A stretch of DNA of 64,000 bases. Source: Octopus vulgaris (taxonomy: Eukaryota). This document shows positions 7,561 to 26,816 of the stretch, in pieces (positions within the stretch are counted from its first letter, which is position 1; every line of letters begins with the position of its first letter). Both the position numbers and the translations under genes were made by a program. The stretch covers positions 34,534,001 to 34,598,000 of the forward strand of contig OX597823.1 in assembly GCA_951406725.2 (NCBI GenBank), written 5' to 3'. Under the pieces are notes generated by a model that was not told the DNA's origin, ran no database searches, and worked only from the letters and a program-made list of their open reading frames with translations.

Positions 7561-8106
7561 CCGTTCTATTATAGGCACAAGGCCTGAAATTTGGGGGAGG
7601 GGAATTAGTCCATTATATCGATCCCAGTACTCAGCTCGTACTTAATTTATCGACCCCGAAAGGATAAAAGATAAAGTCGACCTCGGCGGCATTTGAACTC
7701 AGAACACGAAGACAGACGAAATACCAATTTCTTTACTACCCACAAGGGGCTAAACACAGAGAGGACAGACAAACAGATTAAGTCGATTATATCGACCCCA
7801 GTGCGTAACTGGTACTTATTTAATCGACCCCGAAAGGATGAAAGGCAAAGTCGACCTCGGCGGAATTTGAACTCAGAACACGAAGACAGACGAAATACTT
7901 ATTTCTTTACTACCCACAAGGGACTAAACACAGAGAGGACAAACAGATTAAGTCGATTACATCAACCCCAGTGCGTAACTGGTACTTATTTAATCGACCC
8001 CGAAAGGATGAAAGGCAAAGTCGACCTCGGCGGAATTTGAACTCAGAACGTAGCGGCAGACGAAATACCGCTAAGCATTTCGCCCAGCGTGCTAACGATT
8101 CTGCCC
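7561..8106 (-). mobile_element. Trimeric array of Deu/Nin-domain SINE
   Basis: Three copies of CCGAGGTCGACTTTGCCTTTCATCCTTTCGGGGTCGAT..AAGTACCAG, joined via GTGGGTAGTAAAGAAAT tails. Confidence 0.85.
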
Positions 8107-9069
8107 CCAACAACAGAAACAATAATGACAACAACCAACAGCAGCAGCAACAACAACGCTACTTTTAATTCAAGGTCCCAAATATATGGGGGGGGGTGCA
8201 AAGATGAAAAGTAAATTTGACTGCGACGGGATTTAAATTTGAAATGAAAAGGGAGTTAACTCAATAATTCTTGTGATGACGGTGCAGGATAGAATCAGTA
8301 GAGCGCCAGATGGCAAAACATTGTGCATGCACCATTTTGAACGAAAATCTGACCGGATTTAATCTCGTAATATCAGTGGGTTAATTGATAAATACCAGTA
8401 ATATACTGGTATATTACTACACCCCACACCTCCCATCTATTCATCTGTAAATTAGTGTCACTATAAGAAATCGATAAAGTTTTGTTCCATAAAATTGTTT
8501 ACATCCTGCTCCTCCACCTCGTCCTCCTCCTCATCATCATCATTGCCATCATCATCATCACCACAGCCACCACCAATACCACCTTCCTCCACATCACCAT
8601 TGTAGTCATCGTCGTCATCATCATCACCATTCTCATTGCAGCTGTCTCTACTCTCCTCCTCCTCCTCCTCCTCCTCATCATCATCATCATCATCATCATC
8701 ATCATCCTCAACATCACCACATCATCAGTAGCAGCACGTGCAGCAGTAACATCTATAGTTTTCTATCTCCACACCAATCTCCATGTTAAAATAAATATTA
8801 CATTTCATCCTTTTTAAGACATTTAACAAAACCTTAGAGAAAAAGATGAAAAAACAAGAAAATGTCCTCCGTCCTTTTTTCTTCTTTTTATGTCTCTCAA
8901 GTCTCAAACCGATATCTGTTTACTCCAACTTGCTGACTGCTGCAGACATTCGGCACTTCTCTACAGACACACTCAAGAATATTCCAAAAAAAATTTACTC
9001 CAACACCATAGTTATTAGTATTATTATTACTGGGAAAAGGCGACACGTCGTGTGTGTGTGTGTGTGTGG

Positions 9070-9980
9070 TAGGGGGTGAACTTTAGGCGTTGACTAACGA
9101 GAATCAACTGCTTGGTCTGCCCTACAGGAGGGTTTTCAACCCTGGGACTGTGGATAACTTTCCAGAAATCCCAGGCCTTTGTGCAAGCGAGGGTACCAAG
9201 ATAAACTCTGCAGGTTTGGAAGGGACATAAGACGGGTGTAACTGAGATGCAAGCAGAGCGACAAACATCAGATCTGCACATATTCGTTTACAGTGCGAAT
9301 CTTACTTCATCAACCTCACCACCATCATCATCATCGTCATCACCACCATCATCATACTCATCATTCTCATCATCATCATCATCATCATGATTGTCGTCGT
9401 CGTCGTCGACATGAACATCATCACCACCACCACCATCATCATCATCATGATCATCATCAACCTCACCATCATCATCGTCGTCATCGTCATCAACATCATC
9501 ATCATCACCATCATCATTGTCATCGTGTTGTCGTTGTCATCATCAGCAGCAGCAGCACCACCACCAACACCAGTTTCTGGGAGAGGTATGTCAAGCGAAG
9601 GGTGCGAATCAGGCCGTCGTGAACATCGTCCGCCCCCTTCTTTTGGCCAAAGGAGCACTTTTTCAGCGAGAAAAGTCGTATGATGGACACGACTAAAAGA
9701 AACGAGGACAGATATTTTCCACTTTGGCGAAAACCTCCCGAACTTTCTCAAGTTCCGCTGTCAAAGAAAGCTGAGAGTGAAGAAAACGGTGCTACCCGAT
9801 GGTAAATTTCTTGAAAGAAGGTTTTGAGTGATGAGCATAGCATGAGTGAATGAACCTACGATCAGTGTCCATCTGCTGGGTAAGGAATACAGCCGTGCCA
9901 GGTTATCAACATTGATAAATAGAGAAAACGTAGATTTTATGCCGTTCTTTGACTGAATGGGAATGGAGGACTTCCTTTTG
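9070..9980 (+). mobile_element. Older Tx1-like LINE 3' fragment split by a (CAT)n tract
   Basis: Matches 38520-39050 (e.g. GGATAACTTTCCAGAAATC, GGTAAATTTCTTGAAAG); microsatellite at ~9306-9570. Confidence 0.65.
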
Positions 9981-9986
9981 AAGCAC

Positions 9987-10056
9987 TTTACATTTGACGG
10001 ATATTTGTCAAATGTAAATAATGTACATAATTCCTCATCTCTTAAATATAGAACTG
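9987..10056. mobile_element. Collapsed inverted remnant of the same element's tail
   Basis: TTTACATTTGACGGATATTTGTC is the reverse complement of the tail at ~21498-21520 and overlaps a forward GTCAAATGTAAATAATGTA. Confidence 0.6.
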
Positions 10057-10059
10057 TAT

Positions 10060-24559: not shown

Positions 24560-25110
24560 TGTAACGGGAACGAGTAGCTTCATGCACTTTTAGAGTGCAT
24601 GTGGTGCATACAAATTACCGTTGCTTTAATATCCAGATTCTACTAGTCAAAGAAACACAAAACGCAGACGTAAAAAATATATATTTTTTATTGTCTTATA
24701 ACGGTAAGAAATAAGTGGTGTATCTGGTATCCCTTTGGTATGGATGTGTCAGAGCTGAACTTTATCGCTTGTAAGATTTTACAATGTTCAAATGCAACAA
24801 CACTGGTCAAAATGGCGTCAGGAGAGAGAAGATGATGTGGTCTGCAACAAATCCTGGTTAAAAGTCTTCTGCCGACTGCTGCTGTATCAAGTCCGGACAG
24901 AGAGAGAATTACACGTCCGGTGCCTTCAGTCGCCGTGTCTCAAGTCACTGCCTATATCTCTCCGGACCCTTTTAAGGTTCACGCTCCCCTGCCTCTCGGC
25001 TAAACTGCCACGTCAGCAAATTCCTTCTTCCGGTGGTGAAAGCACCAACCCCGCACGCGCGAAACAGAAAAGGGCGGTGCGTGCGCGCACCGTTGTACAG
25101 GATCACTACA
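24560..25110. mobile_element. Probable solo LTR
   Basis: TGTA..TACA termini, CATA on both sides (within a CATA microsatellite), 551 bp, no ORF. Confidence 0.55.
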
Positions 25111-25183
25111 CATACATACATACATACATACATACATACATACATACATACATACACACGCACACAAGTACACACATAAATAA

Positions 25184-26023
25184 CACTGGTCAACAGACTT
25201 TTTGCTGACCGCGGTTTGCTTAATTTTGTGATGCTGATTTCAAATATGGCATCCATTTTCTTCGAACACGTCAAGTTTTCATTCTGTATCAGATGATATA
25301 CTGATAACTCTTTTGAGTCTCTAACTAAATTATCAAGTTCTGCCTGGTTAAAGTTTTCACGTTCTTTGGTTGATGTTTCTGCAAAGTCTGTATCATTATC
25401 ATGTCCATGATTTACATCTACTTCACATATACCCGCACTTTCATCTTGCAGTGAAGGTAGATCCTTGAAAACGGGTTCTAATATGCAATCTGAGTGAAGC
25501 AATGGATGAATTGCTGAATCCAGGTTTGGGTAACTTATTTTCTGTCACGTTATCTTGCTATAACCAGCAGTCATTGTGAGACAAAAGTAGCAGTTGTTTA
25601 CATGGTTCTTTGGCTCACACCATGTCATACGAATGTCAAATGTTAGTTATTCCTTTGTGCCCTTTGTCCATTGGCGTAGATTTAGGGTTCACAGACATTG
25701 TGCGGGCCCACGATTTATCCTGATCACCAACGTTAATCTTTAAGTAAGCCAAGTAGGACCTTTTCACAATATCACTAACATTCGTTCTTTGACTTGGGTA
25801 CTGTAAAGTATCCACATATATCAAAAAAGAGTCAGAGGAATTCAAACATTTCAAATATAGAGCTATGGGTGGGACCAATTTGGGCCAGCCCATAGATAGA
25901 AAAAAAATCAGATGTGAGAAAAAAAAAACTATTGCCATTTTAAAACTCAGTGATCGAAAATTACTCCAAAACAGGTCTCAAACTTAGGCCAGCAGAAAAA
26001 AAGTTAGAATTTGTTTGCCAGTG
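25184..26023 (-). mobile_element. Internally deleted Chapaev3-type DNA transposon
   Basis: Termini CACTGG..CCAGTG with TAA TSD; transposase remnants CLNSSDSF, VKRSYLAYLKINVGDQDKSWA, FNQAELDNLVRD. Confidence 0.75.
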
Positions 26024-26026
26024 TAA

Positions 26027-26816
26027 TCCGTTCTACAAAAAGCACAAGGCCTGAAATTTTGGTGCAGGGGCAATTCAATTATATTGACTCCAATACGTAA
26101 CTGGTACTTATTTCACTGAGCCTGAAAGGATGAAAAGCAAAGTCCACCTCGGCGGCGACTAAAGGTTAAATAATCGCCAGTTTGTATAATATTTTTTCTA
26201 CACTAGGCACAAGGCCCGAAATTTGGGGGGGGGGGGGCAGTCGATTACATCGACCCCAGGTCGCAACTGATACTTAATTTAATCGAAACAGAAAGGATAA
26301 AAGGCAAAGTCGACATCGGCGGAATTTGAACTCAGAACGTAAAGACAGACGAAATACTTATTTCTTTACTACCCACAAGGGGCTCAACACAGAGAGGACA
26401 AACAAGGACAGACAAACGGATTAAGTCGATTACATCGACTCCAGTCCGTAACTGGTACTTAATATATCGACCCCGAAAGGATGAAAGGCAAAGTCGACCT
26501 CGGCGGAATTTGAACTCAGAACGCAACGGCAGACGAAATACCGCTAAGCATTTCGCCCGGCGTGCTGACGTTTCTTATTTCTTTATTGCCCACAAGGGAC
26601 TAAACATAGAGGGGACAAAGAAGGACAGACAAAGGGATTACGTCGATTACATCGACCCCAGTGCGTAATTGGTACTTAATTTATTGGCCCCGAAAGGATG
26701 AAAGGCGGAATTTGAACTCAGAACGTAGCGGCAGACACAATACCTATTTCTTTACTACCCACAAGGGTAGTAAGCATTTCTCCCGGTGCGCTAACGTTTC
26801 TGCCAGCTGCCGCCTT
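26027..26816 (-). mobile_element. Deu/Nin-domain SINE cluster: one partial monomer plus a multimer
   Basis: Multimer 26194-26816 flanked by CCAGTTT(G/C)TATAATATT at 26177 and 26817. Confidence 0.85.

Follow-up and report, generated by a model that had tools for sequence, protein, structure and literature searches.

The question raised by this locus is why a short interspersed element (SINE) of Octopus vulgaris is joined, repeatedly and at the same base, to the head of further copies of its own family. The window considered here, that is the whole stretch of 64,000 nucleotides that was analysed (contig OX597823.1, positions 34,534,001 to 34,598,000), carries three arrays of this SINE. Two alternative 3' ends, tail A and tail B, and six junctions of tail B with a hairpin of the head had been described in the original prediction; both tails were confirmed, and all six junctions are present with GTATT(T/G)(C/T)GTC within 2 bases after each. 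The answer favoured here, drawn from sequence comparison, is that a family of long interspersed elements (LINEs) and the tail-B SINE probably insert at the same base (47/48), likely through endonuclease recognition and a shared tail. The observations behind it are a common site, a common tail, duplications of about 10-20 bp, older downstream units and heads of the host type.

Tail-B junctions in the genome

The genome searched amounts to 2.8 Gb in 227 contigs. Positions within the SINE are numbered on the tail-B consensus, where the hairpin site is the step 47/48, within the loop of a predicted stem. The SINE is short, non-coding and of high copy number: the unit measures 230 bp with tail B (alignment of 153 full-length copies) and about 214 bp with tail A (alignment of 15), and 117,733 exact tail-B ends were counted genome-wide. 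The predicted enrichment of junctions is borne out at this scale, 34,059 of these ends (29%) running into the hairpin site of the SINE's own head while a reversed-pattern control gave 0 matches. This proportion is a lower bound because an exact match over 10 further bases was required; 5,869 further tail-B ends continue with AGGTA and a non-T base.

A second site, absent from the original prediction, lies in the A box (AGAAACGT...), to which the tail-B end at 26577 is joined. The combination of tail B and AAGAAAC, which includes this site, has 4,060 exact genome matches, some of them outside SINEs. A third and minor site lies in the SINE body, full-length tail-B SINEs being found there in antisense at GGTACTTA with duplications (L138, L150, L158).

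A blind sample of 364 kb was composed of 30 fixed-step 10-kb stretches and the window. The hairpin site occurs 45 times in it (6e-5 per strand-base, or one per 16,000 strand-bases), and 15 of 34 tail-like ends lie on the site when no flank filter is applied; these 15 include the LINE end at 13555. With the flank filter, the blind part yields 11 of 26 tail ends on the site. Among 170 tail ends with enough flank, 87 enter sense SINE sequence, namely 76 at the hairpin, 7 at the A box and 4 elsewhere; this set is biased upward, as 4 of the 40 targeted 10-kb stretches came from the junction list, and 2 of the 170 ends belong to LINEs. According to PMC4494074, a retroelement is target-specific when more than 20% of its flanks fall in one target, a value exceeded by the tail-B SINE both genome-wide (29%) and in the sample (76 of 170).

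A LINE family ending at the same base

A pattern search returned a decayed LINE (L373) at the site, and a protein search with L373 led to a young L1/Tx1-type LINE family of which the top 30 loci were read. All 30 end at the hairpin base (28 by script and 2 by eye), so that the family is target-specific by the same measure. Three full-length copies encode a second open reading frame product (ORF2) of 1134 amino acids with endonuclease, reverse transcriptase and zf-RVT domains (Pfam), and an open reading frame with a zinc knuckle is present in L409. SINE heads host these three copies, each of which has a duplication of about 16 bp that starts at position 48, and all three heads are of the GCGTAGCC variant, like that which precedes the window piece 13516-13555. 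The median pairwise identity of the intact family is 98.4%. Its older relatives L373/L378, L406 and L427 join the G48 variant, as tail B does. A GGC-type LINE-tail pattern at the site gave 32 matches; the 30 that were read comprise 28 tail-B variants, one old LINE end (L373) and one locus ending in ATT repeats 5' of the hairpin site. The domain layout and the behaviour of the hairpin-targeting family suggest that it belongs to Tx1, and name look-ups for ORF2 returned no Tx1 label.

The proposal that Tx1-type LINE copies use the hairpin site and mobilise a self-targeting SINE subfamily is supported for this related family, but not for the LINE that the original prediction had named:

36278..39343, plus strand: decayed L1/Tx1-type LINE, then ATT repeats; related tail, outside the hairpin-targeting family

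The 3' end of this window LINE (39297-39342) is directly before the ATT repeats. In the closest young family (69% amino acid identity), ATT/ATC-type repeats follow the copies and 0 of 29 ends are at the hairpin, and the window LINE was rejected as the partner on this ground. Older tails like that at 39477 are likewise followed by ATT/ATC-type repeats, with 0 of 27 at the hairpin. The hairpin-targeting and young ATT families are 57% identical, and both have the layout of the L1/Tx1 group, with an ORF1 upstream of an ORF2 that carries an apurinic endonuclease, a reverse transcriptase and a C-terminal zinc domain (Pfam); the best solved-structure match of the young ATT family is human L1 ORF2 (E 9e-51).

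Two side observations concern these relatives. Intact 5.87-kb copies of the young ATT family occur head-to-tail, up to about ten in a row and joined by short ATT runs (G000:C4:93.80-93.84 Mb, C47 and C50; L093-L097, L110-L113). Other young LINE families (L411-L421, L423-L424) carry related tails and run into fixed sequences of a different kind, one of which starts with ACATGGAGGAAAG and another with GAAATTCGGCAAAG; these sequences may be the 5' end of the next copy.

The resemblance of tail B to LINE 3' ends, also part of the original prediction, was upheld by end-anchored alignment: 0 of 5000 shuffles score higher against the hairpin-targeting LINE, 0 of 5000 against the young ATT family and 2 of 5000 against the window LINE. 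For 23 older tails (27 minus 4 near-duplicates), the region outside the search motif scores 2.3 versus -3.1 +/- 0.6. Unanchored local alignment of tail B to the LINE untranslated regions gave a marginal outcome (115 and 56 of 2000 shuffles). A short inverted repeat that encloses a five-base loop, CTTGT in most cases, is common to tail A, tail B and the LINE ends; the folding support for this stem-loop is weak, as it folds no better than shuffles with one exception. Tail B exists in two alleles at position 219, and the copies with the C allele are older than those with the T allele (body divergence of 5.4% versus 2.8%).

The head of the SINE carries motifs that look, by eye, like A and B boxes. 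ARAGORN detected 0 tRNA genes in the window, and Rfam returned no tRNA match in 26000-26900; no snRNA match was obtained over the same interval, and a U1/U2-derived head of the SINEU type was not found there. The central domain may resemble that of the Deu/Nin-DC superfamily; five short motifs had no match in the supplementary files searched.

Organization of the window arrays

The tail-B ends at 7727, 7901, 13738, 26360 and 26746 are on the hairpin site, in addition to an insert ending at 13555. The units are as follows.

7901..8105, minus strand: array 1, unit 1, SINE head (A1-type allele, T at consensus 19), body and tail B (consensus 12-230)
7727..7898, minus strand: array 1, unit 2, tail-B unit that lacks a head and starts at the hairpin site (consensus 49-230)
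7560..7725, minus strand: array 1, last unit, which starts at the hairpin site and has tail A1
13468..13515, plus strand: array 2, SINE head of the GCGTAGCC variant (C at position 48), the variant that hosts the young LINE
13516..13555, plus strand: array 2, 5'-truncated 40-base end of the hairpin-targeting LINE family
13556..13738, plus strand: array 2, tail-B unit continuing from the hairpin site (consensus 49-230)
13740..13838, plus strand: array 2, last unit, which starts at the hairpin site, has tail A and carries an internal deletion
26771..26814, minus strand: array 3, SINE head
26746..26767, minus strand: array 3, 22-base tail-B-only insert at the hairpin site
26577..26744, minus strand: array 3, tail-B unit (C allele), its end joined to the second site in the A box
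26360..26575, minus strand: array 3, tail-B unit from the A-box site (consensus 15-230)
26195..26357, minus strand: array 3, last unit, which starts at the hairpin site and has tail A2
51128..51331, plus strand: solo tail-B copy, then ATATAC (off-target class)

The last unit of array 1 differs from three of the four tail-B units at 19-23 of about 110 sites and from unit 2 at 13, and is probably the original host. Two very short inserts had been taken for bare SINE tails. This holds for 26746-26767, which is tail B and may have arisen by 5' truncation or by a deletion within a dimer, but 13516-13555 is a LINE 3' end: all its 40 bases are identical to the LINE end in L408, it is 1 of 69 exact genome matches, and its target duplication is no longer than one base. 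A direct repeat of 17 bp, with a single mismatch, encloses array 3 as a whole.

The uncommon variant GTCTTCGTG was noticed just after the site in three units of two arrays that are 6 kb apart (7726-7745 and 7880-7899 on the minus strand, 13740-13760 on the plus strand). The interval 13155-16703, which contains array 2 and two tail-A SINEs (3.5 kb), is spanned by one contig of run X9, organism C. In an empty-site comparison with the contigs of four runs, the contigs break at the repeat.

Nested insertion and other proposed origins of the arrays

A full second head directly behind the site has 55 exact matches in the genome and is rare next to the seamless joints. In 27 of the 30 such loci that were read, tail B is followed by the site again, and in at least 10 of them, as judged by eye, both duplicated copies carry variants private to the host; the target duplications that had been suggested as a check on nesting are thus found at full-length nested SINEs. 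The units at the downstream end of the arrays bear on the same point. Divergence is higher in the last A2 units than in the B units that precede them (7.5% versus 5.0%, 36 pairs, p=5e-4); these A2 units share variants with one another no more than solo copies do and form no clusters. Arrays with tail A1 at their end gave 139 matches, of which 30 loci were read, and the A1 head allele was observed in 17 of the 25 with the head kept, compared with 13 of 17 solo A1 copies and 12 of 78 solo B copies (A1 arrays against solo B, p=1.5e-6). These heads fit an insertion into an existing host, the 5' joint being presumably made by homology.

Descent of all multimers from a single compound master, which the original prediction had set against its own reading, is contradicted by the duplications around nested SINEs, the older downstream units, the heads that track the downstream host and the unclustered last units. 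The A2 tail was also rejected as the marker of a compound element, as A2 occurs solo and 8 of 23 A2-selected loci follow tail B. The notion that a duplication is hidden in every seamless joint applies to some of them (L229; window units 7727 and 7560) and fails for 10 of 12 dimers.

A related account, in which read-through transcription of nested or compound source loci yields most multimers, each transcript being retrotransposed in one piece by means of its last tail, appears unlikely. A single duplication does often surround the entire array (L043, L408, array 3 of the window), although the insertion of the host itself also predicts such a flanking duplication. Transcription of a full-length nested copy would produce precisely the order head-B-A, and B-type heads are found in many arrays; the last units are nevertheless unclustered and older, and the heads of A1 arrays follow the last unit.

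Local copying at the DNA level was weighed as well. Two or more rare variants are common to both members in 25 of the 108 adjacent B-B pairs, compared with 0.4% of random pairs; these 25 pairs lie in 14 of 71 arrays, which local duplication has lengthened. That slippage or unequal exchange of one SINE produced the arrays in general, with no targeting at all, is nonetheless highly improbable: 65 of the 108 pairs share no rare variant, which also led to the rejection of rolling-circle copying, the tails vary within arrays, and such exchange accounts neither for the first junction nor for nested copies that have duplications nor for the presence of LINEs at the site. Tandem duplication is refuted as a general account and is valid for a minority of long arrays. 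The formation of multimers by self-targeting is supported, with the qualification that some long arrays grew by local duplication. As a side observation, a nested copy in L235, L243 and at G000:C14:84.69 Mb is preceded by up to five tandem units, each 65-66 bp long and made of the head only (positions 1 to about 63).

Insertion of the LINE and of the tail-B SINE at a common base can be depicted as follows. The SINE would have taken tail B from the hairpin-targeting LINE lineage, and its RNA is likely copied by the LINE reverse transcriptase via the common tail. The endonuclease would nick before GGTATTT in the case of the older copies or before CGTATTT in that of the young family. The new DNA would then usually anneal to the host head on its 5' side, giving a seamless unit of 184 bp; no second head or duplication is visible at such a joint because insert and target are the same repeat. 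Each insertion should leave the site intact and each new SINE copy add one, so that the process could repeat, and later local duplication would extend some long arrays. The SINE thereby likely supplies landing pads for the enzyme that copies it.

Several observations weigh against this scheme. Most tail-B copies are older than the intact LINE family, whose junctions are C48 in 26 of the 28 read by script, as compared with C in 3 of 208 tail-B junctions; the real driver must consequently be an older G48 subfamily, of which only L373/L378, L406 and L427 were seen. No LINE was found at the A-box site among the loci examined. The T allele is matched at least as closely by the tail of a LINE family with a different target (L411-L414, L419-L421). 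About half of the tail-B copies (83 of 170) are off-target, the SINE being far less specific than the LINE. Finally, the bases just after the site are of the insert type in 10 of 12 B+A2 dimers, head divergence is intermediate and some heads carry a B-only variant, which implies that whole-array retrotransposition or head replacement also occurs.

Recognition of the target

The off-target ends are informative on what is recognised. A clear duplication, mostly of 11-16 bp, was detected at 45 of 110 unselected ones. The landing sequences begin with GGTAT, AGAAA or TATAT, and the 45 sites have no upstream consensus. The DNA sequence, rather than the shape of the hairpin, seems to be recognised because off-target sites share GGTAT without an upstream stem, and hairpin shape was discarded as the signal.

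RNA guidance as the main determinant of the target is a possibility held only tentatively. The SINE has no repeat tail and its RNA would extend into the sequence downstream of the source copy; these read-through bases would pair with the nicked DNA, and the progeny would inherit the site of their source. The tail allele at position 219, 12 bases from the end, does predict the next bases, also in non-SINE flanks (C: 26 A and 5 G; T: 7 A and 47 G; p=8e-11, on the 3' side of 110 ends with a few possibly misread nested cases), and the link is seen by eye in the listed junctions (83 of 100 versus 7 of 100). On the 5' copy of the 45 duplications in unselected loci, however, the link is not significant (p=0.14), and since C-allele copies are older, a succession of LINE partners with different endonucleases explains it as well as RNA pairing does. 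The three landing classes mirror three common source contexts, yet off-target sites match the head for about five bases only. The 3' copy of the duplication is closer to the expected extension than the 5' copy in 11 cases versus 4, a bias that is not significant (p=0.12); it becomes 15 versus 5 (p=0.04) only if loci chosen by their 3' side are counted.

A precedent for pairing of RNA 3' bases with the target is given by SART1Bm and R1Bm (PMC7265360): accurate priming by SART1Bm rose from 36% to 76% when AGG was added, and R1Bm reportedly depends on target sequence downstream. Those are autonomous insect elements with telomere and rDNA targets, in which pairing was shown experimentally (PMC7265360), whereas it is only hinted at here. 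The choice of target by Tx1 elements is ascribed mainly to the endonuclease (PMC4494074). Recognition by the endonuclease is accordingly ranked first, with RNA pairing as a possible helper.

An arms race can also be imagined, in which the SINE serves its LINE both as passenger and as landing pad, part of the SINE family escaped the older machinery by a one-base change from G48 to C48, a younger LINE subfamily then switched to C48, and read-through RNA bases helped to hand on the choice of target to the progeny; we regard it as speculative and rather doubtful. C48 occurs in 3 of 208 tail-B junctions versus 38 of 229 heads, and the variant heads are found in 15 of 129 arrays versus 23 of 100 solo copies (p=0.03).

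Relation to known elements

The closest system is Tx1-Mar/SINEU of crocodilians (Kojima 2015, PMC4494074), in which, as here, a LINE and a SINE share a precise target within another repeat, SINEs are inserted sequentially in tandem and each target offers two sites for different families. The specificity of the SINE is 13-90% for SINEU and about 29-45% here. The target differs, being a Mariner DNA transposon in the crocodilian system and the passenger SINE in ours; the SINEU heads are derived from U1/U2 and its tandem copies sandwich a duplication, whereas the present joints are mostly seamless and headless. The system thus works like Tx1-Mar/SINEU but with the passenger SINE as target, and is not SINEU. 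Other apurinic-endonuclease LINEs on multicopy targets are Keno (U2 snRNA genes), Kibi and Koshi (microsatellites) and Tx1-9_AMi (Harbinger), and the window LINE stands before an ATT microsatellite as Kibi and Koshi stand in theirs (PMC4494074). None of the targets named in the available part of that article is a SINE bearing the LINE's own tail.

A SINE-targeting LINE-SINE system was not described in the literature searched on octopus, Tx1 and SINE targeting, Repbase, SINEBase and subscription journals being outside this scope. The abundant octopus tRNA SINEs OR1, OR2 and OK were reportedly described by Ohshima and Okada in 1994, and the present family may be one of them. OR2 has been termed a CORE SINE (PMC4758252, PMC5804259). 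Active L1-Tx1 and tRNA-Deu families are reported in PMC13282606, targets being unmentioned in the part covered.

If true, the favoured reading would describe a LINE with its own passenger SINE as a safe-haven target, with tens of thousands of insertions. It would offer a highly replicated natural system to separate endonuclease recognition from RNA-DNA pairing in the choice of target, a possible target switch inside one genome, and an intact young site-specific LINE usable for assays. Caution is advised with 'dimeric' SINE consensus sequences of the present genome, which would mostly be nested products.

Other features of the window

A different tRNA-like repeat head is located at 18590-18660 and is followed by TAC/TAG repeats. 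A fragment of another non-LTR element at 34569-35135 (minus strand) has no Pfam match and appears R4/Dong-like. An exon with Folate_rec and GSDH domains lies at 52177-53418 (minus strand) and looks like part of a gene resembling that of the hedgehog-interacting protein.

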